From Candidatus Forterrea multitransposorum CG_2015-17_Forterrea_25_41 (GTDB lineage: Archaea > Iainarchaeota > Iainarchaeia > Iainarchaeales > CSSED10-239): a DNA stretch of 64,000 nt. Below are positions 7,920 through 55,136 of the stretch, one piece after another. The notes under the pieces are model-generated. The model was not told the origin of the DNA. It saw nothing but the letters and a program-made list of their open reading frames with translations, and made no database searches. The translations under genes and the position numbers were made by a program. Numbering within the stretch: position 1 is the first letter of the stretch; each line of letters begins with the position of its first letter. The DNA is taken from assembly GCA_009392915.1 (NCBI GenBank), contig CP045477.1:1-64000 (forward strand). Direction: 5' to 3'.

Positions 7920-7934
7920 AAGTCTTCTTTTTAT

Positions 7935-13751: not shown

Positions 13752-15299
13752 ATGGTCTTTAAAGAAAATGAACTTGGAATTGTTGTTTCAACAATGGATT
13801 CACCTTCAACTTCAAAGATCACTTTTGTTTGTACCAAAAAAGTTTATAAAGGACAGTATGTTCAAATAGAATACTCTCAAGGTAGTTTAATTGGGCTTGT
13901 AACAGATGTATCTTCTCAGAATAGATATTTTGAAAATAATGAATCTGTAAAAGAATTTGAAAGTTCTGATTATAATATCAATGATCAATTTCCAACTAGT
14001 GATTGGGAATTTTTAATTGCAAATATAAAGCCTTTAGGGGTTCTTTCAAAAGAAAATTTTTTTGTAAGATCTACTCTTCCAGTATCTCCTGGTTCAAAAG
14101 TTTTAATTTGTGAAAAAGAAGTTTTATTTAAATTTCTTCATTTAAAAAAGAATGGACTTAATCTTGGACAAATTGAATTTCCTACTCTTCCTGTTACTTT
14201 TTGTATGGATAGACTTTTACAAAAACATTTAGCAATTTTAGCACAGTCTGGGGCAGGAAAAAGTTATTTAACCTCTGTTGTTTTAGAAGAACTTTTAGAC
14301 AGAACTAAAGAAGAAGGGCAAGTTGCAATTTTATTATTTGATGTTCATGGAGAGTATTCTCATTTTTCACACCCTATAAAAGATTCTTCTCAACATAAAG
14401 ATTATTCTTCAAAGACAATAAAGATTAATTCTTTTGAAATAAAGATTGGAGTTTCTACTCTTTCTTTAAATTTCTTTTCATCTCTTTTACCTTCTTTAAG
14501 TTCTGCACAAAAACGTGAACTTGGAAGTGTTTTAAAAAAATTAAATGAAGATAAAAAAAATGGTTTAGGTCCTTTTGATCTAAAAGACATTATTAAAGAA
14601 ATTGAAAGACAAGAAGTTAAAGAAAATGTTTCAAAACCTTTAATTAATGCTTTAGGTGAACTTTTAGATTATCATCTTTTTGCAAAAATAGATTCACCTT
14701 CAATTTTTGATATTGTAAAACCTGGAAAATTAACCATTATTGATTTATCTAGAGAGATAAATCTTAAAAAGAAACAATTAATACTTTATTATTTTGCACA
14801 TAAACTTTTTTACTCAAGAACAAATCCTTCTTTAAATGTACCTCCATTCCTTTTAGTTGTTGAAGAAGCCCATCAATTTGCTCCAGAAAGTGCAAGTAAA
14901 GATAGAGCTATGGCAAAATCAATTTTAGAAACTATTGCAAGAGAAGGTAGAAAGTTTGGATCTTGTCTTTGTTTAATTTCTCAAAGACCTGTAAAATTAT
15001 CTACCACTGTGCTTTCACAGGCAAACACACATATAATTTTAAGAATAACTAATCCTTATGACTTAAAACATATAGGAGAATCATCTGAAGGACTTGATTC
15101 TAAATCAGTAGAAATGATAACTTCTTTAAGAGTTGGAGAGGCTTTAGTTGTTGGTGAAGCTTCATCTTATCCTGTGTTTTTTAAAGTTAGAAAAAAATAT
15201 TCTCAAGATTCTCATTTAGATGTTTCTCTTTCAGGGCTTGCTAAAAATTATTTAAAAAATACTTCTAATCAAGAGAAAGATATTGAAGGCTTTTTATAG
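13752..15299 (+). CDS. herA: HerA/FtsK-like ATPase (DUF87 family)
   Basis: Walker A AQSGAGKSYLT, Walker B LLVVEEAHQFAP, conserved GSCLCLISQRP region; 515 aa. Confidence 0.6.
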   Translation: MVFKENELGIVVSTMDSPSTSKITFVCTKKVYKGQYVQIEYSQGSLIGLVTDVSSQNRYFENNESVKEFESSDYNINDQFPTSDWEFLIANIKPLGVLSKENFFVRSTLPVSPGSKVLICEKEVLFKFLHLKKNGLNLGQIEFPTLPVTFCMDRLLQKHLAILAQSGAGKSYLTSVVLEELLDRTKEEGQVAILLFDVHGEYSHFSHPIKDSSQHKDYSSKTIKINSFEIKIGVSTLSLNFFSSLLPSLSSAQKRELGSVLKKLNEDKKNGLGPFDLKDIIKEIERQEVKENVSKPLINALGELLDYHLFAKIDSPSIFDIVKPGKLTIIDLSREINLKKKQLILYYFAHKLFYSRTNPSLNVPPFLLVVEEAHQFAPESASKDRAMAKSILETIAREGRKFGSCLCLISQRPVKLSTTVLSQANTHIILRITNPYDLKHIGESSEGLDSKSVEMITSLRVGEALVVGEASSYPVFFKVRKKYSQDSHLDVSLSGLAKNYLKNTSNQEKDIEGFL

Positions 15300-16297: not shown

Positions 16298-18844
16298 GTG
16301 TTTTTTATGGATGATGCAAATTTAATGCTTTTAAAAAAGAAAGTAAAAGCTATAAAACAATATAAAGGCCAAGGTACTCAACTTATAAGTCTTTATCTTC
16401 CACCTGATGCAGATAGAAGTTCTGCAACAAAACAATTAACTGATGAAATGAGTCAATCTTCAAATATTAAGAGTGCTCAGACTAGAAAAAATGTACAAGC
16501 AGCTTTAAAAAGAATTATTAATTATTTAAAACAAATTGATTTTAAACTTCCTGAAACAGGTTTAGTTTTATTTTCTGGAGATGTTTCAACTAATCCTTCT
16601 AAATCAGATGTAATTTTACTTGCAATTGCACCTCCTGTAAGACTTACAACTAAGCTTTATTGGTGTGATTCAACATTTCACATAGCTCCTTTAGAAGATA
16701 TGGCACAAACAGATGATGTTTATGGTTTAGTTGTTCTTGACAAACGAGAAGCAACAGTTGCTATTTTAAGAGGAAAATCTAAAGAAATTCTTTTTTCAGA
16801 AACCTCAAATGTTCCTGGTAAAACAAAAGCCGGGGGGCAATGTTTAAAAGATGCTTTTGTATCTTTATCTGATGGGAATTTAATAGATGTTAGTGAAATT
16901 TCTAAAAAGGATATTCTTTCTTCTATGAATTTTAAACAAAATAAATTAATTAATTCTAAGGTTTTAGATAATTGGTCAGTTTCTAAAAATAAAACATATA
17001 TTATTAAAACAAAAGCTCCTGGTACAGAAATAAAAGCTAGTGAAGATCATATATTTTTTGTTTTAACTCCAGATGGTGTTGTTGAAAAAGCTTCAAAAGA
17101 TTTAACTTTAAATGATTATTTGTTATTTCCAGAAAAATTATCTTATAAAAATAAAATTTGGTCTTTTGATACTAAAAAATATATTTCTAAATTAAATAAA
17201 CCTTCTATAAAGATACCTATAAAACTTAATAATGTATTTGCTAAATTTTTAGGTTATTTATTAGGTGATGGTTCTATTGAAACTGATAGATTAACTTTTT
17301 ATGAATCTAGAAAAGATGTTATTTTAGAATATAAAAAGTTATTTGATAAATATTTTAATGTAAATTCTTCTTTAACTTTTAGAGATTCTAAAAATTATTA
17401 TCAATTAAGAGTTAATTCAACTGCTCTTGTAAGATTAATTAAAGAAGAATTTAAGGAAATTAAAAAAGCAAGAGATTCTTTAATACCTTCTAAAATATTA
17501 ACTTCTTCTAATAAAATATTAGCTAATTTTTTAAAAGGATTTTATGATGCTGAAGGTTATATTAATACTTCTAGAAAATCAATAGATATTGGAATAAATA
17601 ATAAAAAAATTGCACAACAACTTCAATTATCATTATTAAGATTTTCAATTATTGGATCTTTACAAGAATATGATAATAAACAAAATCCTTATACAAATAA
17701 CCATAGGTTTGTGATTTCAATTTCTGATAAAGAGTCAATAGATTCTTTTGAAAAAAATATTAATTTTACTTCTTTTGAAAAGCAAAAAAAAATAAAAAAA
17801 ATTCAAAAATTAAAAACAAACATGAGTTTCTCAAGAACACTTCCTGTATATGGTAGTCAGGTTAGATCTGTTGTTACAAAACATGGTTATAATTTAGAAC
17901 TTTTCCCAAAAGTGAGTAGTTTTTTCAATAATAATAGAATGCTTAGTAAATGCTTTTTTAAAAGTTCTGTTTTAGATTATGTTAAAGATAAATCTCTTTT
18001 AAAAGATTTAATTAAATTTTATAATATGCCATTTTTTGCTGCAAAGATAAATTCTATATTTATTGAAAAAAAGAAAACAATTATGACAGACATTTCTGTT
18101 GCTAATAAATCTTTTATTGCAAATGGATTAATTGTTCATAATTCAGCACATAGATTCGAAAGACTAAGAGATAAATATGAAGAAGAGTTTTATAAGAGAG
18201 TAGGTTCTAAAGTAAATACTGCTTTTGTAGATCTTGATAATTTTAAAGGAATGATTGTTGGTGGTCCTGGACTTACTAAAAATGAATTTTTAGAAATTGG
18301 TGATTTAGACCACAGAATAAAAGATAAAGTTTTAGGAACTGTAGATACTTCTTATACAGATGAGTCAGGTATAAAAGAAGTTTTAGATAAATCTGAAGAT
18401 ATTTTAAAAGAAACTGGTTTAGTTCATGAAAGAAAATTAATTAATAAGTTTTTTGAAGACTTAGCAAAAACAGGCCTTGCAAATTATGGTTTTCAAGATG
18501 TAATTGATGCCTTAAATATTGGTAAAGCTTCAACTGTTTTAGTGTCTGAAGGTTTAGAATGGACTGTTTTAATTTTTAAATGTTTATCAGACAAATCTAG
18601 ATTTATAAAAATTGTTAAAGATAAACATGAAGTTTCTGATACTATCTCAAAATTTGAAAATTCTCCAACAGATTGTCCAGAAGGTAAAGCAGAACTTGTT
18701 GAAGAAGTTGATATATATGATTATTTTATAGATATTTCTAAAAATACAAGTGCAAAAGTTGAACTTATTTCTATTGAAACTTTAGAAGGTAAACAATTTT
18801 TTGAAACTTTTGGAGGGCTTGCAGCTTTCTTAAGATATAGGTAA
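16298..18844 (+). CDS. prf1: Peptide chain release factor aRF1 interrupted by an intein
   Basis: NIKS motif (SSNIKSAQ), GGQ motif immediately followed by the intein's Cys; C-extein SAHRFERLR... is the aRF1 continuation; the exteins sum to 414 aa. Confidence 0.85.
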   Translation: MFFMDDANLMLLKKKVKAIKQYKGQGTQLISLYLPPDADRSSATKQLTDEMSQSSNIKSAQTRKNVQAALKRIINYLKQIDFKLPETGLVLFSGDVSTNPSKSDVILLAIAPPVRLTTKLYWCDSTFHIAPLEDMAQTDDVYGLVVLDKREATVAILRGKSKEILFSETSNVPGKTKAGGQCLKDAFVSLSDGNLIDVSEISKKDILSSMNFKQNKLINSKVLDNWSVSKNKTYIIKTKAPGTEIKASEDHIFFVLTPDGVVEKASKDLTLNDYLLFPEKLSYKNKIWSFDTKKYISKLNKPSIKIPIKLNNVFAKFLGYLLGDGSIETDRLTFYESRKDVILEYKKLFDKYFNVNSSLTFRDSKNYYQLRVNSTALVRLIKEEFKEIKKARDSLIPSKILTSSNKILANFLKGFYDAEGYINTSRKSIDIGINNKKIAQQLQLSLLRFSIIGSLQEYDNKQNPYTNNHRFVISISDKESIDSFEKNINFTSFEKQKKIKKIQKLKTNMSFSRTLPVYGSQVRSVVTKHGYNLELFPKVSSFFNNNRMLSKCFFKSSVLDYVKDKSLLKDLIKFYNMPFFAAKINSIFIEKKKTIMTDISVANKSFIANGLIVHNSAHRFERLRDKYEEEFYKRVGSKVNTAFVDLDNFKGMIVGGPGLTKNEFLEIGDLDHRIKDKVLGTVDTSYTDESGIKEVLDKSEDILKETGLVHERKLINKFFEDLAKTGLANYGFQDVIDALNIGKASTVLVSEGLEWTVLIFKCLSDKSRFIKIVKDKHEVSDTISKFENSPTDCPEGKAELVEEVDIYDYFIDISKNTSAKVELISIETLEGKQFFETFGGLAAFLRYR
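16841..18142 (+). mobile_element. Intein (434 aa) with LAGLIDADG homing-endonuclease domain, inserted in the aRF1 GGQ motif
   Basis: Begins with Cys right after AGGQ, ends with HN followed by Ser; LAGLIDADG-like blocks LGYLLGDGSI and LKGFYDAEGYI. Confidence 0.8.
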
Positions 18845-23622: not shown

Positions 23623-24739
23623 TATAATTGTGTTGCATAACTCTTTTTAAAAGTATTGTCTAACCTATTTTATTACTAGATAAAGGAGGTTAGACAATAT
23701 GAATATTAAGAACGAAAAGATTAATAAAAGGAACTGGTCAAAGATAAATTATGGAAAAACAAGACAAATCTTGTTTTTACTAGATAAAAACATTATTTTT
23801 AGTGAAAATGAAAGACTAGTTTCCCAAAATAAAAACAAACCAGGAAGACAATTTATATATAGTGATAGAATAATAGAACTATTAATTGATCTTAAAAATT
23901 ATTTTAAATTTGATTATCGTAAACTACAGGCATTCTGCCTGTTGTTTAATAATGTTATAAAAATAAAAACACCTGACTTTACAACTATTTGTAGAAGAAT
24001 GCACAAATTAGAATTATTTCTAAAAAATATAAAAACAAAAAAAGAACCAACCTTTATAGCTATAGATGGTTCTGGACTTCAAACTACTAATCGAGGAGAA
24101 TGGCTTAGATTAATACACAAAAAAGGAAAAATAAACTTAAGAAATGGATTTGTAAAATTAGTGATTGCAACAGATGTTGCATCTGGAGAAATAACTGGAG
24201 TGTATATTTCAGATGATTCTGATTTTGAAAATAAAAGCTTATCAGATTTATTATACCAAACAATAAATAATCAAAACCAAGAAGTCAAAGGACTTCTTGG
24301 AGATGGGGCATACGATTCTTATGATAACTTTGATATGCTTGATGATATGGGAATAAAACCAATTATCAAAATCAGAAAGAATGCAATTACAACAGAACCT
24401 AATGACGATTATTTAAAAAGAAGAAGAAAACTTGGAAAAAAGAAAAAAATAAAAAGAATTGAAGTTGCAAAAAAGCAACTTAAAAATGTAGATGACTGGA
24501 AACAAAAAAATGAGTATAATAAAAGGTGGGTTGTTGAATACACGTTTAGTGTATTCAAAAGACTATTCGGACATAGTGTGTACTCTAAAAGAAAGAAATA
24601 TGTCAAAAATGAAGTAATTTCTAAAGTAAATTTGTATAATAAATTATTAAATATCAATTAAGAAAAAAATAAAATGAATTAAAAAAAGAAATAAGCTAAA
24701 AATATTGTGTAAAACACAATATTTGTGCAACACAATTTT
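23623..24739 (+). mobile_element. IS5-family-like insertion sequence with ~17-bp imperfect terminal inverted repeats
   Basis: Left end ATAATTGTGTTGCATAA (23623-23639) and right end TTGTGCAACACAATTTT (24723-24739) are reverse complements, with a 12/12 core AATTGTGTTGCA (23626-23637) / TGCAACACAATT (24726-24737); single transposase ORF inside. Confidence 0.6.
23699..24661 (+). CDS. DDE transposase, IS5-like (DDE_Tnp_1 type)
   Basis: IAIDGSGL (D), LLGDGAYDS (D), C-terminal VVEYTFSVFKRLFG (E...K) typical of IS5/IS4-type transposases; 320 aa. Confidence 0.75.
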   Translation: MNIKNEKINKRNWSKINYGKTRQILFLLDKNIIFSENERLVSQNKNKPGRQFIYSDRIIELLIDLKNYFKFDYRKLQAFCLLFNNVIKIKTPDFTTICRRMHKLELFLKNIKTKKEPTFIAIDGSGLQTTNRGEWLRLIHKKGKINLRNGFVKLVIATDVASGEITGVYISDDSDFENKSLSDLLYQTINNQNQEVKGLLGDGAYDSYDNFDMLDDMGIKPIIKIRKNAITTEPNDDYLKRRRKLGKKKKIKRIEVAKKQLKNVDDWKQKNEYNKRWVVEYTFSVFKRLFGHSVYSKRKKYVKNEVISKVNLYNKLLNIN

Positions 24740-24818: not shown

Positions 24819-26192
24819 ATGGCTATAGACAAAAGATTTTTTTTAGGGATAACTATTAGTAAAAAAAGAAAAGCAATTTCTCCTTTAATTGCCACTATTC
24901 TTTTAATAGTTGTTGCCGTTGCAATTATAGCTATTATTGTTTCCTGGGGAAAAGGATTTACCAATGATTCTTTAAGCAAAGCCTCTGGTCTTGAAATTTA
25001 CACTGAATCAGAAACTTCTTTTTACTTGCAAGTAAAAAATTCAATAAACGGAAGAACTGTTGTTCAATATAATCCTCCTTATAATTCTCCTCACACCTCT
25101 TTAACCATAACAGGTTATAGCCTACATGGTAACACGAATATTAATCCCATAGATCCACCAATTACAATAACTGCAAACCAAACTGCAGTTATTGATCATG
25201 GTATTTTATTTCCAGAATTAAATTTAGTTTTATATTTGGATAATGATCGAATGATTATTAAAACTGATCTTTTACAAACTATTAAATCTCCTCTTTCTTG
25301 TCCAGAAGGTTATGTTTCTGTTCCAGGAAACCACTTATATGGAACTATGAATGAAAGTGGGGGTTTTTGTGTTTCAAAATATGAGATGAAAATGGATAGA
25401 ACAGGAGATGGAATAGGAAATCTTGTAGCTGATTATCCTGATTGTAACACCGGTTCTTTAACATATAATACTTATAGTTATGAATTATGCCCTACACCAG
25501 GCACTTTAGTTTCTACTCCAGAAGGTTCTCCCATAGCAAGAATCACACAAACTGAAAGCATATCAGCCTGTGAAGCTATTGGTGGTCATTTAATAACAAA
25601 TAACGAATGGATGACCATTGTACGAAACATAGAACAAGTTCCATCTAATTGGTCAGGTGGAGCAGTTGGTGATGGCTACCTTCCAAGAGGGAATTCATCT
25701 TCTTCAGGAGCTATGGAAGGCTTTGATCAACTTTCAGGAACTACCAAAAGAACCTTGACCTTAACAAACGGAGAGGTAATTTGGGATTTAGCAGGAAATG
25801 TAAGACAATGGACCAGTGACACTATTCAAAGAAAGGACCAGCCTGATGGTTTTAATAATGTAGATGATAGTAATAATACTTCTGGTTTTAATTGGTTTGA
25901 TTATTTTAAGGGCGGTGGAGTAGATCAATATATTTATTCTGATAATTTAGGTAACACCACCTTAAAGTATAAAGATTTATTTTTATTAACTAGTAATACT
26001 TATAATGCAACAGATAATGGTGTTGGAAGGATTTATACTTATAGTGATTTTAGTGATACTAGTACAACTGAGTACGCGTTTTTGCGCGGTGGTCACTGGG
26101 GCAATGGCACTAATGCCGGGGTCTTGCACCTGGTCTTGAACAAGACTCCTGGGTCCCGGAGCATCCTCATCGGCCTGCGCTGTGTCAAGTAG
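24819..26192 (+). CDS. DGR target: pilin-like (class III signal peptide) surface protein with C-terminal FGE/C-type-lectin-fold variable region
   Basis: N-terminus KAISPLIATILLIVVAVAIIAII (archaeal pilin-like); C-terminus YAFLRGGHWGNG...LIGLRCVK resembles the FGE-sulfatase/CLec fold used by DGR variable proteins; its last ~120 nt form a GC-rich VR matching the TR. Confidence 0.75.
   Translation: MAIDKRFFLGITISKKRKAISPLIATILLIVVAVAIIAIIVSWGKGFTNDSLSKASGLEIYTESETSFYLQVKNSINGRTVVQYNPPYNSPHTSLTITGYSLHGNTNINPIDPPITITANQTAVIDHGILFPELNLVLYLDNDRMIIKTDLLQTIKSPLSCPEGYVSVPGNHLYGTMNESGGFCVSKYEMKMDRTGDGIGNLVADYPDCNTGSLTYNTYSYELCPTPGTLVSTPEGSPIARITQTESISACEAIGGHLITNNEWMTIVRNIEQVPSNWSGGAVGDGYLPRGNSSSSGAMEGFDQLSGTTKRTLTLTNGEVIWDLAGNVRQWTSDTIQRKDQPDGFNNVDDSNNTSGFNWFDYFKGGGVDQYIYSDNLGNTTLKYKDLFLLTSNTYNATDNGVGRIYTYSDFSDTSTTEYAFLRGGHWGNGTNAGVLHLVLNKTPGSRSILIGLRCVK
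26072..26192 (+). repeat. DGR variable repeat (VR), 3' end of the target gene
   Basis: ~55% GC in a ~25% GC genome; near-identical to 27297-27417 with 13 mismatches, 12 of them at template adenines; identical 3' 24 nt CATCGGCCTGCGCTGTGTCAAGTAG (IMH-like). Confidence 0.8.
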
Positions 26193-26498
26193 TTTTTAGA
26201 AAAAATATATTTCATCCCCAAACCATGTATTTAGACGGGTGAGACGGCAAGACGGCCAGACGGAAGAAGCCATGGCAACCTAAACGTTTCAAGATTGTTT
26301 TTGCAAAAAAATGAAAAAACGTATTTGTGAAGTTTTAAAAAAAAGAAATGAGTGTGATTTTTGCAAATTTTTTTGATTTTTTTCAAAAAAATTTGCTAGC
26401 CGTTAAACCAAATGGTTTTTTAATGTAAAAATAATTTTTATAATAATTAAGTTTTAAAGAAAAAATACTTTATATCTTGGACAAACAATGTGATTTAA

Positions 26499-26885
26499 AT
26501 GAGTTTAGTTGGAAATGAAAAAGGAATTCTAAATTTTGGTGTTTACAAGGAGCTTTTCCCAATCGTTATTGAAACTTATAATTTTTTAGAAAATAATAAA
26601 TCTTTATTTAAAGTAGATTTTGTTTATACAGATACTGTTAAAAATTTAATAGATATTCTTTCTTTTCTTTCCAAAGGGTATAATAAATTTCATTCTAATG
26701 AAAAATCTTTACTTTACTCTTATTCAAGAGATTGTGTTTCTACAACCCAATCTAATCTTTTAATATTATCTGAACTTAATAAAGATCTCTCAAAAGAAAA
26801 AACCTTATATTTTTATAATCAATTTGAGGATAAAATAAAGTATTTTAATGGTTTAATAAAAAAGATTGAAGAAAATAAAAACTAG
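26499..26885 (+). CDS. Hypothetical protein inside the DGR cassette
   Basis: 128-aa ORF between the target gene and avd; no recognisable motif. Confidence 0.3.
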   Translation: MSLVGNEKGILNFGVYKELFPIVIETYNFLENNKSLFKVDFVYTDTVKNLIDILSFLSKGYNKFHSNEKSLLYSYSRDCVSTTQSNLLILSELNKDLSKEKTLYFYNQFEDKIKYFNGLIKKIEENKN

Positions 26886-26896
26886 GGTATATTATT

Positions 26897-27226
26897 ATGT
26901 TATTTGACTTAAAGTTATATAAAGAAACTTATAACTTTTTACTTTATATTTATCCTGAAATAAATAAATTCCCTAAATCAGATAAATATTCTTTAGGAGA
27001 GGATATTAAAAAAACAACTATTTCTTTAATGTCAAATATTGTTCTTTTTTCAAAGCATAATGAAAATACTTTAAAAGAAGCAGATAAAAACTTAGAATTA
27101 CTAAGAATATATATTAGGCTTTCTTTTGATTTAAAAATAATCTCTTTTAAAAAATATGAGGTTATTTCAAGGCAATTAAATGATATTGGTAATTTATTAG
27201 GTGGTCTTTTAAAACAAAAGATTTAA
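26897..27226 (+). CDS. avd: Accessory variability determinant (Avd)-like four-helix-bundle protein
   Basis: 109 aa, predicted all-helical, basic; sits immediately upstream of TR and RT (canonical avd-TR-RT order). Confidence 0.55.
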   Translation: MLFDLKLYKETYNFLLYIYPEINKFPKSDKYSLGEDIKKTTISLMSNIVLFSKHNENTLKEADKNLELLRIYIRLSFDLKIISFKKYEVISRQLNDIGNLLGGLLKQKI

Positions 27227-27296
27227 ATATTTTTTCAACTAATAGTTATGTTGTTCTTTTAAATAAAAAGAATAGGGCTTTTACAGAAAAAAACAG

Positions 27297-27417
27297 GTGC
27301 GCGTTTTTGCGCGGTGGTAACTGGAACAATGGCACTAATGCCGGGGTCTTGAACCTGAACTTGAACAATACTCCTGGGAACCGGAACAACAACATCGGCC
27401 TGCGCTGTGTCAAGTAG
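27297..27417 (+). repeat. DGR template repeat (TR)
   Basis: GC-rich noncoding copy of the VR containing AAC/AAT codons (would encode N-rich ...NWNNGTNAGVLNLNLNNTPGNRNNNIGLRCVK); located between avd and the RT. Confidence 0.8.
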
Positions 27418-27678
27418 TTTCTCCTTATTATTTTTAATAATAAGGTTTTATCAGAGTTTGTATGTTTATTTTTTTATCTAAAAAAACATATAAAGCGAAT
27501 ATTTTAAAAAACTACATCTGTAAAATGTTTCCTGATTGCACATAATGTGTGCCATAAGAACTATTTTGTTTTTATGTTAAAAAATCAAATATAAAGATAA
27601 GTTATTACATTTAGTATTTTTATAGTCTGTAAAAAGAAATCTGTAATAACTCTTAACTTTAAATAAGGCTTTTTAAAA

Positions 27679-28695
27679 ATGAAATCATACAATAACCTTT
27701 GGCAAGAATTCACTTCTTTTAAAAATATTTTTAATGCCTATAAAAAAGCAAGAAAGTCCACACCAAACAAAAAGTATATCTTGCAATTTACCACAAATTT
27801 AGAAAAGGAGTTATTCTTATTACAAGATCAATTAATTTCAGAAAATTTTCAATTTTCTCCTTACAGAAGTTTTAAAGTTTATGAACCTAAAGAAAGAACA
27901 ATAAGTGCACCTATTTTCAGGGATGTTGTTGTTCAGCATGCCATAATAAACATTATTGAACCTATTTTTGATAAAACCTTTATAGATAACTCTTTTGCTT
28001 GTAGAAAAGGAAAAGGCACACATAAAGGGCTTTTTGAAATTAAAAAAGTAATTCAAACCCCAAATCATCCAAAATACTATTTAAAACAAGATGTAAAGAA
28101 ATACTTTCCTTCAGTTCATAAACCTACCTTAAAAGAAATAATTTTTAAAAGAATTAAGGATGCAAGATTACTTTCTCTAATATATAAAATAATTGATAGT
28201 TATTCTTTTGATTTAAATCAAATTCAAAAAGGTATCCCTATAGGTAATTTAACCTCTCAGTTGTTTGCAAATATTTATTTAAACCATTTAGATCAGTATG
28301 TTAAGCATTCTTTAAAAATTAAACATTATTATAGATATGTAGATGATTTTTTAATATTTTCAAACAATAAAAGAAAATTACATGTTTTTAGAAGAAAAAT
28401 AAAATTATTTTTAAGTAAAGAACTATTATTAGATGTTCCAAAAAATAAAACTTATATAAACTTAGTAAGTAAAGGAGTTGATTTTTTAGGTTATAAGGTA
28501 TTTCCTTCAAACATAAGATTAAGAAAATCAAATCTTAAAAGATTTCTTCTAAGACAAAATAAAAATAACTTTCTTCTAAAAAAAAATCAAATTTCTAAAC
28601 TTAACTATAATTTTTCTCTTTTTTCTTTTTTAGGTTATGCAAAGCATGCAAACTCTTATAATCTCTTAAGTACTTTAAATATTAATGAGTTATAG
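27679..28695 (+). CDS. DGR-type reverse transcriptase
   Basis: RT motifs: ISAPIFRDVVVQHAI, IGNLTSQLFANIYL (the DGR-specific SQ variant of QGxxxSP), YYRYVDDF (YxDD catalytic motif); 338 aa. Confidence 0.85.
   Translation: MKSYNNLWQEFTSFKNIFNAYKKARKSTPNKKYILQFTTNLEKELFLLQDQLISENFQFSPYRSFKVYEPKERTISAPIFRDVVVQHAIINIIEPIFDKTFIDNSFACRKGKGTHKGLFEIKKVIQTPNHPKYYLKQDVKKYFPSVHKPTLKEIIFKRIKDARLLSLIYKIIDSYSFDLNQIQKGIPIGNLTSQLFANIYLNHLDQYVKHSLKIKHYYRYVDDFLIFSNNKRKLHVFRRKIKLFLSKELLLDVPKNKTYINLVSKGVDFLGYKVFPSNIRLRKSNLKRFLLRQNKNNFLLKKNQISKLNYNFSLFSFLGYAKHANSYNLLSTLNINEL
28589..28687 (+). repeat. 99-bp direct repeat, copy 1 (3' end of the RT gene)
   Basis: Identical to 30138-30236. Confidence 0.85.
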
Positions 28696-41013: not shown

Positions 41014-44000
41014 ATGTCCGTAGAGAAATATAAAGCAACAAATGATAAAGATTTATTTGATGAAGTAGAATCTTCTAATAGAAAGTATGTTAATGAAGAT
41101 ACTATTAAAGATATTGAAGATAAATTAAAAAAATCAAGAGAAGAACATCCTTTAGAAGATGTTGAAAATTTTTCTGAAATTGATGATTCTGAAGATGATG
41201 ATTCTGAAGATGATGATAACTTAGATGAAGTTGATTTAGAAGAAAACTCTGAAGATGAAAATTCAGAAGATAATAATTCAGAAGATAATAATTCAGAAGA
41301 TAATAATTCAGAAGATAATAATTCAGAAGATAATAATTCAGAAGATAATAATTCAGAAGATAATAATTCTGAAGATAATGATATAGATGAAGCTGATTTA
41401 GAAGAAGACTCTGAAGATAATAATTTAGAAGAAGATAATGTTGAAAAAGACCTAAATGAAATTGATTCTAAAGAATCAGATTTAAAAGAAGATTTTACTA
41501 AAAACTCAAATATATCAAAAGAGATTACTAAAGATAAAGATATACCTGCTAAAAGTTCAGAAATTATAATTAAACCAGCACTTAAATTCTTAGAAGATTT
41601 ACAAGACCCTAATGTAGTTTATTTAGGTAGAAAAAAATCTGTTTTAAAACAATATGGAAAGATAGCTACAGCATATATAGGAAAAGTTGCTGAAAATCAA
41701 CAAGAAGGCAAACAAGTTAACATAGATGGTCTAAATCCACACGTTATTTTCTTAGATGGTGCTAGAGGAACAGGTAAGAGTTATCTTTTAGGGGTAATAG
41801 CAGAAGAGCTTGCAAGAACAAACCCATATATAGGGCAAATAGTAATTGATCCTGTAGGTGTTTTCTGGTCAATGAAATTTCCAAACAGAGATTCAAAAGA
41901 ATTAAAAATTTTAGAAGAATGGGGTTTAAAGGCAGAAGGTCTTAAAAACTTAAAAGTCTTTGTTCCAGAAGGTATAGTTTCTCAAGTTTCAAAAGATACT
42001 TATGATGACACTTTTTCAATGTTTCCTTCTCTTTTAACTCCAGAAGATTGGTGTTTAACTTTTGGTATTGAAAGATTTTCTCCATCAGGCTTACTTTTAG
42101 AAAAAACTTTAGAGTCTGTAAAGAAAGGATATGTTACAGGTGGAACAAAAGATGTTCCTGATGTTAAAAAAATATCAGCAAAAGGAAATCATTTTACTTT
42201 AGAAGATATTATTAACTGTCTTCAAAACAATTCTGAATTTCAATCTTCTCAAAAAGGTTATAAACCAGATTCTATAAGAGCTTTAGTTTCAAGATTTGAA
42301 GCTGCAAGATCTTGGGGTATATTTTCAGATTCTGGAACTCCTCTTTCAAAACTTTCAAGAGAAAATCAATTAACTGTGCTTGATACTTCTTTTTTAGATG
42401 AAAATATTACTGCTTTAGTTATTGGTATTTTAGCTAGAAGAATTCTTTCTGCAAGAAAACTTCTTGCAAGACAAGAAGCTGTTAAAAAATATGGTGATTC
42501 AACACAAAAAGCAGAAGAACTTTTAGAAATTGAAATTCCTCCAACATGGATGTATATTGATGAAGCACACACTTTAATTCCTTCTGGAAATTCTCAAACA
42601 CCAGCAACTGCAGGAATTATAGAGTATGTTAAGCAAGGAAGAAGACCTGGTTGTTCTTTAGTTTTTGCAACACAACAGCCTTCTGCAATAAACACTAAAG
42701 TTTTATCACAAGTTGATATATTAATCTCAAATAAATTAGTTTTTAATGATGATATTTCTGCAATTCAAAAAAGAATGCCTGCAATAATACCAAAGCAATA
42801 TAAAGAACCAAATTTTATAAAGACTTTGCCTTTTGCAACTGCTCTTGTAGGAGATAGATCAGAAGAAACTTCTAGAGCTTTTATTTTAAGAGCAGCACCA
42901 AGAAGATCTCAACATGAAGGTCGTGATGCAGAAACAATTAGAGAGATTCCTAAAAAAAATAAATCTGAAGTTTTAGAAATTGCTTTTAAAATGGTTTATG
43001 AAAAATTAGAAAAAACAAAAGAAATTAAAGTGTCTTTTGCAAAAGATATTTTAGATGTTATTAATATTAAATATAGAGGAACTGTTGAATATGATGAACT
43101 TTTAGAAAAACTTTTAGAAAAAAATGTTTTACTTAAAGAAGATCTTCTATATCTTAATGAAAATTTTTTCAAAGAATATAATCAAGAAGAAAAATTAGTT
43201 TCTAATGATTCCGAAAATACTGATGAAATAAATTCTTTAGATGAAAATGAGCTTGAAAATATTGAAGAAAATTTAGAACATGTTAAAAGTAGTGTTTCAA
43301 AAGTAAAAGTAAGAAATACTATTGCAGAAAGAATTTCAAAAGCAAATATTGAAGAAATTGCAAATCAAAATATTAAAAAATCTTTATTATTTAAACCAAA
43401 AGAAGAAATTTTAAATATTGTTTTAAAATATAGAACAATTTATAAAATAAGTTATAATGTTTATGATTCACAAGATTCTTTTAAGACAAATACTTGTTTT
43501 GTGGATTCTGTAACTGGTGAGTTTATACATTTTTTAAATGGAGAGTTTAAGATTTCTTCTGGTTTAAATGTTTTAGATAAAATTAATGAAGATTATTTAG
43601 AGATTCTTTATCTTTTAAATAAACAACATACTTTGTTTTCTTTAAATCAAGAAACAGATATTGAAGAAAAAGATTTAATTGAAATGATTGATTCTTTTAA
43701 AGAATTAAATTTAATTACTGTTAAAAATAATTCTGGTATAGATGTTTATAAAATAGATTCAAAAGCTTTTGATATTCCTTTTAACCCGACTATTAAAGTT
43801 CTTTCATCTTTAGATGTTTTACCTTTAAAAAAACAAGATGTTGAGTTTTTAGAATCAATAAACTATTCTTTAAATGTTATTCAAGATAATTTAAAGAAAT
43901 TATGGGGTGAAATTGAATTTACTTCTCTTCAAGAAATCTATTGGCCAATTTGGCAAATTACTTATAATAATAAAGAAGGAAATAGAGTTTTAAAAGTAGA

Positions 44001-44025
44001 TGCTGTAACAGGCAAAAAAATGTGA
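41014..44025 (+). CDS. Large HerA/FtsK-like P-loop ATPase with N-terminal acidic tandem-repeat region
   Basis: Walker A LDGARGTGKSYLL, Walker B MYIDEAHTL, conserved GCSLVFATQQPSAINTKVLSQVD block paralogous to the 13752-15299 ATPase; N-terminal SEDNN repeats; 1003 aa. Confidence 0.5.
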   Translation: MSVEKYKATNDKDLFDEVESSNRKYVNEDTIKDIEDKLKKSREEHPLEDVENFSEIDDSEDDDSEDDDNLDEVDLEENSEDENSEDNNSEDNNSEDNNSEDNNSEDNNSEDNNSEDNNSEDNDIDEADLEEDSEDNNLEEDNVEKDLNEIDSKESDLKEDFTKNSNISKEITKDKDIPAKSSEIIIKPALKFLEDLQDPNVVYLGRKKSVLKQYGKIATAYIGKVAENQQEGKQVNIDGLNPHVIFLDGARGTGKSYLLGVIAEELARTNPYIGQIVIDPVGVFWSMKFPNRDSKELKILEEWGLKAEGLKNLKVFVPEGIVSQVSKDTYDDTFSMFPSLLTPEDWCLTFGIERFSPSGLLLEKTLESVKKGYVTGGTKDVPDVKKISAKGNHFTLEDIINCLQNNSEFQSSQKGYKPDSIRALVSRFEAARSWGIFSDSGTPLSKLSRENQLTVLDTSFLDENITALVIGILARRILSARKLLARQEAVKKYGDSTQKAEELLEIEIPPTWMYIDEAHTLIPSGNSQTPATAGIIEYVKQGRRPGCSLVFATQQPSAINTKVLSQVDILISNKLVFNDDISAIQKRMPAIIPKQYKEPNFIKTLPFATALVGDRSEETSRAFILRAAPRRSQHEGRDAETIREIPKKNKSEVLEIAFKMVYEKLEKTKEIKVSFAKDILDVINIKYRGTVEYDELLEKLLEKNVLLKEDLLYLNENFFKEYNQEEKLVSNDSENTDEINSLDENELENIEENLEHVKSSVSKVKVRNTIAERISKANIEEIANQNIKKSLLFKPKEEILNIVLKYRTIYKISYNVYDSQDSFKTNTCFVDSVTGEFIHFLNGEFKISSGLNVLDKINEDYLEILYLLNKQHTLFSLNQETDIEEKDLIEMIDSFKELNLITVKNNSGIDVYKIDSKAFDIPFNPTIKVLSSLDVLPLKKQDVEFLESINYSLNVIQDNLKKLWGEIEFTSLQEIYWPIWQITYNNKEGNRVLKVDAVTGKKM
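41266..41385 (+). repeat. 15-bp coding tandem repeat (GAAGATAATAATTCA, ~7.5 copies; encodes [SEDNN]n)
   Basis: Perfect copies at 41266, 41281, 41296, 41311, 41326 and 41341, then degenerate copies. Confidence 0.9.
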
Positions 44026-44031
44026 TAAAGT

Positions 44032-44328
44032 ATGGTTTTAACTGAAAAAGATTTTATACAAGATACATGTAAAGCAACACCAGGATTTGAATATTATCCA
44101 AAGAAGTTCTTAGAATTAAATGTTTCAAAATTACTCCCTATATTAAAAGAAAATGATTTTTATATATCTAAAGATAATTCTCCTTTTTATCTGCATGTAA
44201 AAAAAAAAGAATTAGAAGCATCTATTTTTTCATCAGCTAAGATAATTATTAAGAATACTACTGTTGAAGAAGATGCTAGTTTATTTTTACTTGATATTTT
44301 AGTTTGTTTAAATAAAGTTATGGAATAA
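44032..44328 (+). CDS. Hypothetical protein
   Basis: 98-aa ORF directly downstream of the large ATPase. Confidence 0.25.
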   Translation: MVLTEKDFIQDTCKATPGFEYYPKKFLELNVSKLLPILKENDFYISKDNSPFYLHVKKKELEASIFSSAKIIIKNTTVEEDASLFLLDILVCLNKVME

Positions 44329-45328
44329 TTTTTTTTAAAATTTTTTCCATTCTTTCAATAACTTCTCTTTTTTCTTTTTTTTCAATATATTTTTTATGTC
44401 TTTTAATTATTTCTTTTCTAGCAGCTTCTTTAATTTTCTCTTCATTTATAATTGAGCTTTTAACTGTATTTATGCCCATATCTGTAGGAGATTTATACTC
44501 GTGCATTTTATTTTTTTTTGAAATAATTTTGTTAATTATTTTTTTTAAAATTTTAAAATTTTCAATATCTCTATTATAGTTAATAGCTGTAATTCCATAT
44601 GCTTTTTTATGATAAGGGTCAATAATATTTTTATCTCCAATATCTGCTGTTGCAGCTTCATATGCAAGATTAATAGGATGATTTAAAGGAAGATTAAATA
44701 CTGGGAAAGTTTCAGATTTAAAATATCCTGAATTAATTTTATTTTTTGAATCTAAAAATATTTGTGCTAAACAAATCCCCATTTTTCCTGAATTTGCAAC
44801 TGCACCAATTACAACATTTATTTTTTTATTTGTTTGGATATATGGTTGTTCAATAAATCCTTTTTGTCCTAATATTTCATCTAAATCATTTGGATAGTCT
44901 TTAATTGTTTTTGAGAAATAAACTTTTATGTTTTTCTTTTTCATTTCTTTTTCTAAAACTTTTCCTGAATTTTCATTTTTATATCTTGTTATTACTATAT
45001 CAATTTTTTCAAATTTTTTATGCAATTTTTCAATTTCTTCTAATACTAATTTTCTAAATTCTAGATTACTATTATAATCTCTTCCATTTTCTAGATGTTT
45101 TGAATAAATACAATATATTATTCCTACATCTTTTTTTATTTTTTCAAGAATCTTTACTTTTGTATCTTTTTTATAATCTATTAATACTCTATTTGCATGA
45201 TAGTCTCTTAAAAGATGTCCTCCAAACTCAATATAGACTTTATCAAAGTTTTTAATTCTTTTTTTAATTTCATTTACTTGTAATTGAATATATTTATCTT
45301 CATCAAATGCTATTTTCTTTGTAATCAT
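44318..45328 (-). CDS. Hypothetical conserved protein
   Basis: 336-aa ORF; no motif confidently recognised. Confidence 0.3.
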   Translation of the reverse strand: MITKKIAFDEDKYIQLQVNEIKKRIKNFDKVYIEFGGHLLRDYHANRVLIDYKKDTKVKILEKIKKDVGIIYCIYSKHLENGRDYNSNLEFRKLVLEEIEKLHKKFEKIDIVITRYKNENSGKVLEKEMKKKNIKVYFSKTIKDYPNDLDEILGQKGFIEQPYIQTNKKINVVIGAVANSGKMGICLAQIFLDSKNKINSGYFKSETFPVFNLPLNHPINLAYEAATADIGDKNIIDPYHKKAYGITAINYNRDIENFKILKKIINKIISKKNKMHEYKSPTDMGINTVKSSIINEEKIKEAARKEIIKRHKKYIEKKEKREVIERMEKILKKIIP

Positions 45329-45398: not shown

Positions 45399-47465
45399 AT
45401 GTTTTGGTTTTCTTTTTTATATATGTATCTTAATAAAAATGCTATTTCTCCATTAATAGCAAGCATTTTAATTATTGTTGTAGTTGTTGCAGTTATTGGT
45501 GTGATTCTATTATGGGGTAAAAACTTTACAAATGAAAGTTTAACTTCCACTTATACTTTTTCACAAGATAAAACTGTTTCTGATTTTGTTTGGCAAGATG
45601 ATATTACTGGTAAAAATCTTTTTATAAAAAACACACATATATCATTAAGTAAAACTATTATTGGTTATAAAATAAACAGTTCCTTAGATTATGCTTATCT
45701 TAATAAATATCATTATCTTGATGAATCTTTTTTATTATCTAAAAATTCCATTGCTCAATTAACTTTAGGTTGTGTTCCAGAAAAGAATTTTTCAATTGAA
45801 CTTTTAACAGACTCTAATGAATATATTTCTTTTCCTGTCACTTCTAAGTTTTTTGATCCTTCAGAATGTACTTTTTCTTTTTCAATAACTTCTCCTTTGG
45901 AAAATTCAATCAATGCTTTAAATTCTAGTATTTCATTTACTTCTGAAATTTTAAATTCTTCAGGTACTCCTTCTTGTACTTGGATTTCTTCAATTGATGG
46001 TACTTTTTCAACATCTTGTGATGCAACTTATTCTTCTTTATCTTCTGGTTCTCATGATATTAATTTAGTTGTTGAAGATTCTGGTGATATTTTAACACAA
46101 TCAACTTCAATTATTGTAAAAGATTCTTTAGAAAGTATTATTTCTACTCCTTCAAATTCATCAAATCATTTATTTAGTGATACAATTTCATTTAGTGGTA
46201 CTGCAGATAATAATTTTGGTTCTCACACTTGTTCTTGGACTTCTTCTTTAGATGGTTCTCTTTCAAGTGATTGTAGTTTTAGTTCTAGTTTATCTCCAGG
46301 CACACATACTATTACTTTACAAGTAACTGATTCTCTTGAAACAGCATCTTCAAATATTTCTATAGATGTTTATGCTTTATTAGTTGCTTCTGTTTCTCTT
46401 CCTGCTAATAATTCTACAAAATCTTTAGGAAGTCCTATCTCTTTTTCATCAAGCATTTCTGGAGGCGATGGATCTTATTCTTGTAGTTGGACAGATAATG
46501 GTTCTCCTTTAAGTTCTAGTTGTTCATTTAGTCATACTTATCCACAAGGAAGTTGGTCTGAATATCAAGATATGCCTCAAGGTAGAGATTATCATGATTG
46601 TGTAGGTGTTGGTGATAAACTATATTGTTTTGGAGGAGATGATTCTACTTATAATGTAGAAAGAACTACTCAAATTTATAATTCTACAACAAATACTTGG
46701 TCTTTAGGTGCAAATATGCCTGCAGATAGAGAGCTTCCAGCATGTAGTTATTATAATGGAATAATTTATTGTATAGGAGGATTTAATAGTTCTTGGGATT
46801 ATGTTAATTCAAATTATGCTTATAATATTTCTACAAATTCTTGGTCTAGTAAAACTTCTATGCCAACAGTAAGAGCTGAACATGATTGTACTGCCTTAGA
46901 TGGAAAAATTTATTGTTTTGGTGGAAATAAAGATGGTGGAGGTGCAAGTAATCTTCTTGAAATATATAATATTTCAACAAATTCTTGGTCAACAGGTACA
47001 AGTTCACCTTCAGGAAAAGCAAATCATAATTGTGAGGGTTTAAATAATAAGGTTTATTGTATTGGTGGTACAACTACTACTTTAATATATGATGTTTTAT
47101 CTGATTCATGGTCTACAGGTACAACTATCTCAACATCAAAATCATCTGGAGCTTCTGATTTATATGGTACTAAAATTTATTATGGAGGAGGTTCTTCTGC
47201 TGCACTTTTAGTTTACGATACTGTTTTAAATAGTTGGTCAACTCTTGCTAGTTTACCTTATTCTAACAGATCTTATATAGGTTGTGGAATTGCAGATAAT
47301 ACTTTTTATTGTGCAGGAGGAGATTCAAGTCAAGGTAGAGAAACATACATGGATAAATTACATGGATATTCTATAGGTGCTACAGGAACACATGAAATTG
47401 AATTAAATGTAAGTGATGGTTATGGTCAAACTGCTTCTAATACAATAAATATTAATGTTCAATAG
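45399..47465 (+). CDS. Pilin-like (class III signal peptide) surface protein with Ig/PKD-like Ser/Thr-rich repeats and a Kelch-type beta-propeller
   Basis: N-terminus NAISPLIASILIIVVVVAVIGVILLWGKNFTNESLT (paralogous to the DGR target N-terminus); repeated ...CSWTS(S)LDGS... modules; Kelch-like repeats LYCFGG / IYCIGG / IYCFGG / VYCIGG. Start probably the Met at 45423. Confidence 0.55.
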   Translation: MFWFSFLYMYLNKNAISPLIASILIIVVVVAVIGVILLWGKNFTNESLTSTYTFSQDKTVSDFVWQDDITGKNLFIKNTHISLSKTIIGYKINSSLDYAYLNKYHYLDESFLLSKNSIAQLTLGCVPEKNFSIELLTDSNEYISFPVTSKFFDPSECTFSFSITSPLENSINALNSSISFTSEILNSSGTPSCTWISSIDGTFSTSCDATYSSLSSGSHDINLVVEDSGDILTQSTSIIVKDSLESIISTPSNSSNHLFSDTISFSGTADNNFGSHTCSWTSSLDGSLSSDCSFSSSLSPGTHTITLQVTDSLETASSNISIDVYALLVASVSLPANNSTKSLGSPISFSSSISGGDGSYSCSWTDNGSPLSSSCSFSHTYPQGSWSEYQDMPQGRDYHDCVGVGDKLYCFGGDDSTYNVERTTQIYNSTTNTWSLGANMPADRELPACSYYNGIIYCIGGFNSSWDYVNSNYAYNISTNSWSSKTSMPTVRAEHDCTALDGKIYCFGGNKDGGGASNLLEIYNISTNSWSTGTSSPSGKANHNCEGLNNKVYCIGGTTTTLIYDVLSDSWSTGTTISTSKSSGASDLYGTKIYYGGGSSAALLVYDTVLNSWSTLASLPYSNRSYIGCGIADNTFYCAGGDSSQGRETYMDKLHGYSIGATGTHEIELNVSDGYGQTASNTININVQ

Positions 47466-54527: not shown

Positions 54528-55136
54528 ATGTCTTATAAAATACAAAATTTAGTTGCATCTTCTAATCTTGAAACTACATTAGATCTTTATAATCTTGCAG
54601 CTGCAATACCTGATGTTGAATACGAACCAGAACAATTTCCAGGAGCTATATTTAAACTTAAAGAACCAAAAGTAACTTTACTTTTATTTAAGAATGGAAA
54701 ATTAATAATCTCTGGAGCTTCAAATGAAGATGATATTGTTGCAGGAATTAAAAAAGCAACAAAGTTAATTAATGAAATTCAAAAAGAAGTTAAAATTAAA
54801 AAATCAGTAAATTATACCATTGTTAATTTAGTTGCAACTTCAAATCTTAATAAACCAGTTGATTTATTCCAAGCTGCAGTAACTTTAGATGATATTGAAT
54901 ATGAACCAGAACAATTTCCTGGTGCAATAATTAGAATTCATAATCCAAAAATTACAATTCTTTTATTTAAGAATGGTAAAATGATTTGTGCTGGTGCAAA
55001 ATCAGAAGCAGATATTAAGAAAAGTATTACTGTTGTAAAGAAATTATTAAAAGACAACAATTCTGAAGGTGAAGAAAAGTTATCTTTTAAACCAGAAAAG
55101 AAAGCAATTGCAAAGAAATCAGTTAAAAAGAAATGA
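54528..55136 (+). CDS. tbp: TATA-box-binding protein
   Basis: Two direct repeats (IQNLVASSNLETTLDL...YEPEQFPGAIF and IVNLVATSNLNKPVDL...YEPEQFPGAII); TATA/BRE-like TTTATAAATATTTTGC ~70 nt upstream. Confidence 0.85.
   Translation: MSYKIQNLVASSNLETTLDLYNLAAAIPDVEYEPEQFPGAIFKLKEPKVTLLLFKNGKLIISGASNEDDIVAGIKKATKLINEIQKEVKIKKSVNYTIVNLVATSNLNKPVDLFQAAVTLDDIEYEPEQFPGAIIRIHNPKITILLFKNGKMICAGAKSEADIKKSITVVKKLLKDNNSEGEEKLSFKPEKKAIAKKSVKKK

Follow-up and report, generated by a model that had tools for sequence, protein, structure and literature searches.

A HAS-barrel-less HerA-clade ATPase with a family-specific C-terminal module is conserved among housekeeping genes of Iainarchaeota

The DNA analysed here is a stretch of 64,000 nucleotides of Candidatus Forterrea multitransposorum (contig CP045477.1, positions 1 to 64,000), referred to below as the window, which has a G+C content of ~25% and carries archaeal information-processing genes (Orc1/Cdc6, PCNA, Rad50, primase, GINS and TBP) as well as AglB. 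Proteins identical or nearly identical to those of the window bear the labels 'archaeon' or 'Candidatus ainarchaeum', in line with a DPANN archaeon of the Iainarchaeota (Diapherotrites). We characterized the gene at 41014..44025 (+ strand), an open reading frame (ORF) with an ATG start that encodes a HAS-barrel-less HerA-clade ATPase of 1003 aa, as assigned from the ORF list, the Pfam DUF87 domain and the homologues. Public databases name the protein 'ATP-binding protein' or 'DUF87 domain-containing protein', and a full-text literature search found no description of this architecture or family.

All features of the gene described below lie on the + strand. The protein matches Pfam DUF87 (PF01935, the HerA central domain) over residues 249–477 with 46.7 bits at a cut-off of 23.2. 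The Walker A motif GARGTGKS (residues 249–256; 41758..41781), which has the same G, R, G, G, K and S in all of 37 homologues, is followed by the Walker B motif WMYIDEAH (residues 512–519; 42547..42570), in which IDEAH is invariant in the same set. The GCSLVFATQQPSA strand (residues 546–558; 42649..42687), preceded by KQGRRPG, carries the conserved Gln of the FtsK-HerA type, and its residues A, T, Q, Q, P, S, A and I do not vary among the 37 homologues. The sequence alignment pairs KQGRRPGCSLVFATQQPSA (residues 540–558) with AREGRKYG...SQRPS, the '(A/V)SQRPS' of HerA chains in the PDB. More than 130 columns are invariant across the 37 sequences, nearly all of them within the ATPase, the core of which ends in the family motif PRRSQHEGRD (residues 629–638).

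An AlphaFold2 (AF2) model of residues 181–1003, built as a monomer on the 37 homologues, has a mean predicted local distance difference test (pLDDT) score of 80.5, and the core mostly scores 80–93. AF2, Foldseek and hhalign together place a short N-terminal β element and a HerA-type RecA-like ATPase core with a helical insert at residues 190–640 (41581..42933). When the PDB was searched with this model by Foldseek, the 50 best matches listed were all HerA (E 3e-14 to ~6e-10), including T. kodakarensis HerA-NurA, S. solfataricus HerA, D. radiodurans HerA, Sir2-HerA, DUF4297-HerA and TdpA; the best were HerA entries 9x1m and 4d2i (E about 1e-13 to 3e-14), and VirB4, VirD4 and FtsK were absent from these 50. 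Sequence searches of the PDB agree, returning HerA entries with 8xau as the best match (28–30 bits). A HAS barrel is missing: PF09378 does not match the protein, and the AF2 model has only ~50 ordered residues ahead of its P-loop strand. The protein also has no membrane segment (maximum 19-residue hydropathy 1.33). Among NCBIfam models the best match is HerA_antiphage with 29.3 bits against a cut-off of 800, and HerA_Thermprot and helicase_HerA do not match. The PADLOC models HerA (59.6 bits) and mad8 (54.9 bits) do match; these matches are unspecific, because a canonical HerA of 515 aa, also encoded in the window, scores higher on every model common to both proteins. The large protein is a HerA-clade ATPase in which the catalytic motifs are intact, the HAS barrel is gone and the C-terminal module is family-specific.

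The canonical HerA is encoded at 13752..15299 (+ strand) and comprises a HAS barrel and an ATPase, as judged from Pfam, NCBIfam and the context of its homologues. DUF87 scores 97.2 bits, and the HAS-barrel model scores 24.3 bits over residues 17–74, just below its 25.2 cut-off. A preliminary description of the window had named both DUF87/HerA-type ATPases, had taken them for paralogues and had noted that they share Walker A, Walker B and a [G][SC][CS]L[VC][FL][AI][TS]Q[QR]P block, all of which is borne out. The respective motifs of the 1003-aa and the 515-aa protein are GARGTGKS and QSGAGKS, WMYIDEAH and LLVVEEAH, and GCSLVFATQQP (residues 546–556) and GSCLCLISQRP. Profile-profile comparison of the two families with hhalign gives a probability of 99.3% (E 1.5e-20) over 361 columns, and pairwise BLASTP connects the two proteins in the P-loop region alone (E 3e-4); the two proteins share 23% identity, and identity of the 1003-aa protein to canonical HerA proteins is about 15–23%. 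By these comparisons the two ATPases are ancient and distant paralogues. Because the hhalign alignment, which pairs residues 198–634 of the large protein with residues 113–486 of the smaller one, starts only after the HAS barrel, this barrel has no counterpart in the large protein. The double-strand-break-repair HerA models of NCBIfam match the 515-aa protein best (168 and 158 bits, under the strict equivalog cut-offs), and the CedD and TraC models also match it and not the 1003-aa protein. A 53%-identical homologue of the 515-aa protein has NurA two genes upstream and Rad50 close by. The 515-aa gene is canonical HerA.

Rad50 of the window lies at 7935–10253 and has a TTG start; the upstream gene, in the stretch 7170–10253, is short-chain-dehydrogenase-like. 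The canonical HerA gene is found 3.5 kb downstream of Rad50, separated from it by primase, GINS, a 254-aa ORF (12133–12897) and PAC2 genes. The usual repair operon is dispersed in the window, since Rad50 has no adjacent Mre11 and HerA is 3.5 kb away. NurA and Mre11 were not found among those window ORFs that were scanned.

The part of the large protein beyond the ATPase core (residues 641–1003) measures ~365 aa, shorter than the ~450 aa estimated in the preliminary description, and its length is constant across homologues at ~360–400 aa. A separate AF2 model of residues 647–1003 has a mean pLDDT of 88 and contains four predicted domains. Winged-helix domain 1 (residues 647–715; 42952..43158) is modelled with a pLDDT of 90–94 and the order H-β-H-H-β-β. 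It is followed by an acidic, disordered inter-domain linker (residues 718–763; 43165..43302; pLDDT <50) with a net charge of -10, compared with a family mean of -12.7. The PepSY-like α/β domain 1 (residues 765–850; 43306..43563; pLDDT 92–98) contains the motif DSxTGEFxHF and is mildly basic throughout the family, with a mean charge of +4.5. Winged-helix domain 2 (residues 851–915; 43564..43758) is TrmB/MarR/ArsR-like, and the Pfam TrmB, MarR and HTH_27 matches of relatives fall on it. A conserved connector (DLPxNPxHxLLxS...LP) and the PepSY-like α/β domain 2, recognized from the AF2 model (pLDDT 92–98) and the alignment, complete the chain (residues 916–1003; 43759..44022), and α/β domain 2 has the end motif YWPxW...IDAVxG. 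Pfam PepSY (PF03413; cut-off 24) scores 29.1 bits at the extreme C-terminus of one homologue (P0080) and 20.7 bits, under the cut-off, on α/β domain 1 of the window protein. An N-terminal winged helix-turn-helix (wHTH) domain in relatives, suggested by precomputed Pfam lists, was rejected, since the TrmB/MarR matches sit in the C-terminal extension. In a fold search made on the whole 181–1003 model, the compact α/β–winged-helix–α/β module appears family-specific and without a solved counterpart. Its identity between clades is 24–30%, compared with ~45% for the protein overall, which indicates that the module evolves much faster than the motor.

The N-terminus is acidic, as the preliminary description stated, with 40.5% D+E in residues 1–185. 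Close to its start, the short linear motif KDLFDEVE (residues 12–19; 41047..41070) follows the family consensus D-[ILPF]-F-[DE]-[EDK]-hydrophobic, which is found in 84 of 111 full-length homologues at a median position of 18, compared with 3.2 expected from shuffled N-termini. Its appearance is that of a short docking motif with a spacer of free length behind it. Residues 20–185 (41071..41568) form an acidic, low-complexity and probably disordered tail. Between 47 and 370 aa precede Walker A in the homologues, and D+E account for 13–54% where a tail is present; the tail is acidic nearly throughout the family.

Within the tail lies a perfect, in-frame 15-bp tandem repeat that encodes (SEDNN)7. 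The repeat is real as described previously, with its limits 6–16 bp off: it spans 110 bp at 41260..41369 with 7.33 copies, rather than 41266–41385 with 7.5 copies. Tandem Repeats Finder reports a wider, imperfect array around it (41172–41451). The predicted variability of the repeat number is supported. In the 90%-identity cluster of the large protein, which comprises 29 sequences from many assemblies, lengths of 1003, 978, 973, 953 and 939 aa occur, and alleles from other assemblies and the window carry 7, 2, 1 or 0 SEDNN units. The 978-aa allele, present on 10 and 2 contigs, has zero mismatches to the window protein and differs solely by a 25-aa deletion of five SEDNN units; one 973-aa allele (P0133), also with zero mismatches, lacks the same five units and one SEDDD unit. 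Alleles with one or no tandem unit are more diverged, with 22–35 mismatches. The recurrence of every allele in independent assemblies makes it likely that the length variation is real and of the slippage type. The acidic repeat is an ordinary coding microsatellite, a strain-level length polymorphism in a disordered tail, which is useful as a strain marker and not remarkable by itself.

The full query (residues 190–1003) is covered in alignments with more than 595 homologues, with 44–81% identity in the best 120. A scan by motif across species-representative GTDB genomes, one for each species, gave 269 matching stretches. Almost all of these bear the label Iainarchaeum, Diapherotrites or unclassified archaeon, and Ca. 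Iainarchaeum andersonii and Ca. Forterrea are among them; a few lie on contigs with bacterial or Micrarchaeota labels, and we take the bacterial ones to reflect mis-binning. Shorter relatives of the family are found in other archaea. A 244-position profile of the C-terminal module matched 395 representative proteins among 1.84 billion (42 at E ≤ 1e-30), and for the majority of the 150 best listed it reaches to within a few residues of the C-terminus. Ten of these proteins, ranging from 334 to 1492 aa, were scanned with Pfam, and a DUF87 ATPase precedes the module in eight; the other two are short (532 and 334 aa) and gave no ATPase match in Pfam. Four of the eight are short forms of 650–800 aa that lack the acidic tail, two have an intein at the P-loop, after which the DUF87 match resumes at profile position 37, and two are forms of 1200–1300 aa with an inserted DUF835, one of which (P0342) additionally has a SAP DNA-binding domain. 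A further 810-aa match is labelled Hadarchaeales, and its DUF87 is known from the precomputed match of a 90% cluster mate (P0432). The co-occurrence of ATPase and module in the scanned proteins therefore makes motor plus module the unit of the family, and the main Iainarchaeota clade gained the acidic tail and the N-terminal motif in addition. Inteins occur in homologues of both ATPases of the window (P0299 and P0307 in the large family, P0233 and P0235 in the 515-aa family). Inteins favour essential replication and repair proteins.

The genomic context was sampled in 84 related loci, in which all ORFs were clustered, and in 4 distant loci; the loci of a 54%-identical homologue (L001) and of two 44–47%-identical homologues (L004 and L005) were inspected gene by gene. 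In the window, a gene for a 98-aa single TBP-domain-like protein (44032..44328, + strand), assigned from its context and from the Pfam TBP matches of relatives, starts 7 bp downstream of the ATPase gene. A same-strand gene of ~100 aa follows the ATPase in relatives of at least 54% identity, at 20 of the 84 loci, with a median gap of 13.5 bp. Two members of this small family match Pfam TBP (25.0 and 24.8 bits, cut-off 22.9), and some members carry the JGI name 'ArsR family metal-binding transcriptional regulator'. The genuine TBP of the window lies at 54528–55136, and the profile-level link of the 98-aa protein to it is weak (E 0.012). Homology of the 98-aa protein with the C-terminal α/β domains was rejected (hhalign probability 0.2%). 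The small protein is a possible lineage-specific partner of the ATPase; its gene is absent from the L004 and L005 neighbourhoods, where the downstream genes are convergent GlmU-like, PGM and GlmS. These three are the commonest neighbour clusters of the sample, at 24–27 of the 84 loci.

The next gene in the window is a DUF1846 gene on the opposite strand (44318–45328), and beyond it, at 45399–47465, lies a gene for a 688-aa surface protein. Pfam detects Kelch β-propeller and PKD repeats in this protein, and its N-terminus, judged by eye only, resembles a signal peptide of the archaeal pilin type (class III). The preliminary description had placed the ATPase just upstream of this Kelch gene, whereas the 98-aa gene and the DUF1846 gene stand between them. 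The Kelch/PKD gene is absent from L001, L004 and L005, none of the recurrent neighbour clusters of the 84 loci contains a homologue of it, and a 285-aa secreted protein recurs in a minority (14 of 84). The flanking genes are housekeeping genes conserved by clade, and the small gene, in one clade, is the one recurrent same-strand partner. The four distant members are likewise alone among housekeeping genes. At one of these loci (L090, 2900–7160; Diapherotrites), the gene for a short, 707-aa form of the ATPase overlaps by 29 bases the end of a Hel308-like helicase gene, which lies upstream on the same strand, with Cdc6, SepF and a ParA/MinD gene within 5 kb, and at another RadA and an AP endonuclease lie near the ATPase gene. 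NurA, Mre11, Rad50, nuclease effectors, type IV secretion system (T4SS) genes and pilus genes do not recur near the ATPase in the 84 related and 4 distant loci. Within one archaeal phylum the family shows broad conservation, housekeeping synteny and no partner gene. Missing the HAS barrel and a recurrent NurA/Mre11 neighbour in the 84 loci, and scoring 29 bits against NCBIfam cut-offs of at least 800, the large protein does not belong to the canonical repair HerA proteins, in agreement with the preliminary description; affiliation with canonical HerA together with a NurA gene nearby, named there as the opposite outcome for both proteins, is found for the 515-aa gene alone, by way of its 53%-identical homologue, and not for the 1003-aa protein.

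A tblastn search with the large ATPase gave no match in phage records. The best match in plasmid records is a 389-aa 'ATP-binding protein' (WP_251331428.1) on a plasmid of Haloplanus sp. HW8-1, which shares 30% identity with the window core over 428 columns (E 1e-60) and is co-linear with it from just before Walker A up to a terminal RPRxSQHxG motif common to both; a weaker plasmid match that we inspected is a Sir2-HerA pair. The Haloplanus locus (L091; NZ_CP098519.1 109107–124255) encodes a BREX ATP-binding-domain protein, an AAA ATPase, a GNAT protein and a QueF-like gene, followed by a PD-(D/E)XK nuclease and a helicase. The gene directly upstream of the Haloplanus ATPase, which overlaps it, is PglZ/alkaline-phosphatase-like by eye only and has no Pfam match. 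That this upstream gene is a split-off C-terminal module was rejected (probability 0.9%). The BREX-related capture (BRC) operon consists of PglZ, a BrxC-like ATPase, a STAND NTPase and DUF4007, and such systems have a universal HerA/FtsK translocase component that is proposed to translocate or reel in invader DNA (PMC12839542). The Haloplanus locus matches this published system, one of its genes by eye (PMC12839542). None of PglZ, the BrxC-like ATPase, the STAND NTPase and DUF4007 is present in the window or the related loci.

Compared with the Haloplanus ATPase, the window protein has a whole core that is co-linear, with VDPxGxxWxM, ALVxRxExAxxWGIFSD and ATQQPSA in both, and both lack a HAS barrel; in its co-linear core the window protein resembles the HAS-less HerA/FtsK translocases of the BRC and DndH-like type. 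However, the Haloplanus protein, at 389 aa, has neither the acidic N-tail nor the winged helices and the C-terminal module, and it is translationally coupled to its upstream gene in a defence island, whereas the window gene stands alone among housekeeping genes. With canonical HerA (Saccharolobus solfataricus 4D2I, Thermococcus kodakarensis 9X1M and the 515-aa protein) the window protein shares the RecA-like core, the helical insert, Walker A/B and the Q motif; in contrast to these, it has no HAS barrel and no linkage to NurA, Mre11 or Rad50, and it adds the 185-aa acidic tail and the 365-aa C-terminal extension. The anti-phage HerA proteins (Sir2-HerA, DUF4297-HerA, TdpAB and mad8 of MADS) have the same HerA fold and provide the best PDB sequence matches and the PADLOC HerA and mad8 matches, but they carry HAS barrels that dock the product of an adjacent effector gene, and no effector gene adjoins the window gene. 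The layout of a superfamily motor followed by a C-terminal winged helix is analogous to that of FtsK/SpoIIIE. The winged-helix γ domain of FtsK guides loading on DNA. The two winged helices that follow the motor in the window protein are TrmB/MarR/ArsR-like and not basic; the window protein has no membrane anchor, its structure matches HerA and not FtsK, and Pfam FtsK_SpoIIIE (PF01580) reaches a sub-threshold match in one homologue (E 0.005).

We propose that the protein is an autonomous, self-targeting DNA translocase with a housekeeping role, a reading to which we assign a probability of roughly one half. The gene would be chromosomal and vertically inherited, and would represent a distinct, HAS-barrel-less branch of the HerA-clade P-loop ATPases. 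By homology with HerA and with the HerA/FtsK component of capture systems, the core most likely forms a ring that pumps double-stranded DNA through its pore at the expense of ATP. Canonical HerA docks NurA on its HAS barrel, as solved HerA-NurA complexes of the 9x1m type illustrate. In the window protein, the accessory parts would instead be carried in one chain, with a predicted winged helix directly after the motor and then an acidic, flexible linker. The α/β–winged-helix–α/β module probably directs the motor to its target, either a DNA structure or a protein partner, the D-Φ-F-[DE] peptide probably serves to dock either a partner or the C-terminal module of the protein itself, and the acidic tail may serve as a spacer or as a DNA-mimicking autoinhibitor, the length of which would drift in this strain by replication slippage of the 15-bp repeat (SEDNN units). 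Since the gene stands alone among housekeeping genes, a core DNA-handling role (chromosome processing, segregation or repair) would be expected, rather than one in secretion, pili or two-gene defence.

Several points weigh against this proposal. Ring formation, DNA translocation and DNA binding are all predictions from homology. The winged helices are not basic, with a family mean charge of ~0 and a charge of -8 for winged helix 2 of the window protein, because of which they may bind protein instead of DNA; DNA binding by them is uncertain. The case for a core gene of the phylum consists of the 269 matches and the local synteny. Short-read assembly, the source of the copy-number alleles, can collapse a 110-bp repeat. 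Finally, the closest relative in plasmid records sits in a defence island, which makes a defence role possible.

This relative suggests the main rival, a stand-alone defence role, in which the protein is a single-gene anti-invader 'capture' ATPase with a HerA/FtsK motor and fast-evolving winged-helix sensors that intercepts foreign DNA, its effectors being encoded elsewhere. We regard it as unlikely, although it has definite attractions: the nearest plasmid-record relative of the core is the HerA/FtsK component of a BRC system, the PADLOC HerA and mad8 models match, and the C-terminal module evolves faster than the motor, as fast-evolving wHTH domains are typical companions of capture systems (PMC12839542). 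The distribution and the context speak for a housekeeping gene instead. The 269 stretches belong essentially to one phylum and lie in conserved housekeeping synteny, not in variable islands; no effector, whether a nuclease, Sir2, PglZ or another, adjoins the gene in the 84 related and 4 distant loci; and the PADLOC matches are those on which the canonical HerA scores higher.

A second DNA-end-resection HerA, acting in trans with NurA, Mre11 and Rad50 from elsewhere in the genome, is improbable. Its HerA fold and motifs, the presence of Rad50 and canonical HerA in the same 64-kb window, and the repair genes near distant members (the Hel308-like overlap, and RadA with the AP endonuclease) would be consistent with such a role, but the protein has no HAS barrel and thereby no NurA-docking surface, NurA is not adjacent at any of the 84 loci, and the genome already has a canonical HerA, a relative of which does have NurA two genes upstream. 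It is equally improbable that the protein is an ATP-driven regulator or remodeller that does not act on DNA and uses its winged-helix and α/β domains to bind proteins. Ring ATPases with winged-helix domains are also known as protein-interaction scaffolds, and the neutral to acidic winged helices, the two long acidic disordered segments and the docking-type N-terminal peptide would fit this idea. However, the solved structural and sequence matches listed are all HerA, several of them in complex with DNA, one family branch inserts a SAP DNA-binding domain, and to our knowledge all characterised HerA-clade members act on DNA or are activated by it.

A secretion, conjugation or pilus motor (VirB4-, TraC- or CedB-like) for the pilin-like Kelch protein, which revives the secretion or DNA-transfer role offered in the preliminary description and could appeal to an FtsK-HerA superfamily ATPase 1.4 kb upstream of a Kelch/PKD protein with a pilin-type signal peptide (by eye) and to the wide suspicion that DPANN archaea exchange material with their hosts, is highly improbable and already largely refuted by context: two genes intervene, one on the opposite strand, the Kelch gene is not a conserved neighbour (missing from L001, L004, L005 and the recurrent clusters), T4SS, membrane or pilus partners and a conserved link to surface genes are lacking, the ATPase has no membrane segment, VirB4, VirD4 and pilus ATPases do not occur among the structural and sequence matches listed, all listed fold matches being HerA, the likeness to VirB4/TraC/CedB is that of the superfamily alone with no specific sequence or structure match, phage records gave no match and the two inspected plasmid matches are defence-type HerA rather than conjugation ATPases, and the CedD and TraC models of NCBIfam match the 515-aa HerA instead.

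Within the housekeeping translocase reading, a bolder and rather doubtful version is that the family represents an unrecognised housekeeping DNA pump of Iainarchaeota, with relatives in other archaea. It would be a functional analogue of FtsK, a motor with targeting domains and a partner-docking peptide of its own, for chromosome segregation, resolution or clearance at division in archaea without FtsK, and would have been domesticated from HAS-less capture motors or be ancestral to them. Little is understood so far of how chromosomal DNA is moved, resolved or cleared at division in FtsK-less archaea. A part in this process has long been suspected for HerA, which has been tied only to end resection and, lately, to phage defence. 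A stand-alone HerA-type motor that has lost the docking barrel and gained a module and a peptide of its own would be a concrete candidate for a different job, and the link between a chromosomal core gene and the motors of BREX-related capture systems points to a possible exchange between defence and housekeeping.

The window contains further features apart from the two ATPases. A diversity-generating retroelement occupies 24819–28695, with a reverse transcriptase (RVT_1) at 27679–28695 and a putative target gene at 24819–26192 that has an FGE-sulfatase/C-type-lectin-like C-terminus. Its 124-nt repeat is present as a variable repeat (VR; 26072–26195) at the 3′ end of the target gene and a template repeat (TR; 27297–27420) upstream of the reverse transcriptase, with 89% identity; by our own count of the alignment, 12 of the 13 mismatches fall on adenines of the TR copy. 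A DDE transposase gene (DDE_Tnp_1; 23699–24661) lies just upstream, because of which the stretch may be a mobile or variable island. At 16298–18844, an ORF of 848 aa is release-factor-like (aRF1) with a large internal insertion of ~400 aa, which, judged by eye only, resembles an intein with a homing-endonuclease part. On the - strand, the gene at 2211–5093 encodes a 960-aa fusion of an ODP/metallo-β-lactamase-type domain, a weak flavodoxin match and the γ and α parts of pyruvate:ferredoxin oxidoreductase, and it is followed by the gene for the β subunit of this enzyme at 1356–2207.

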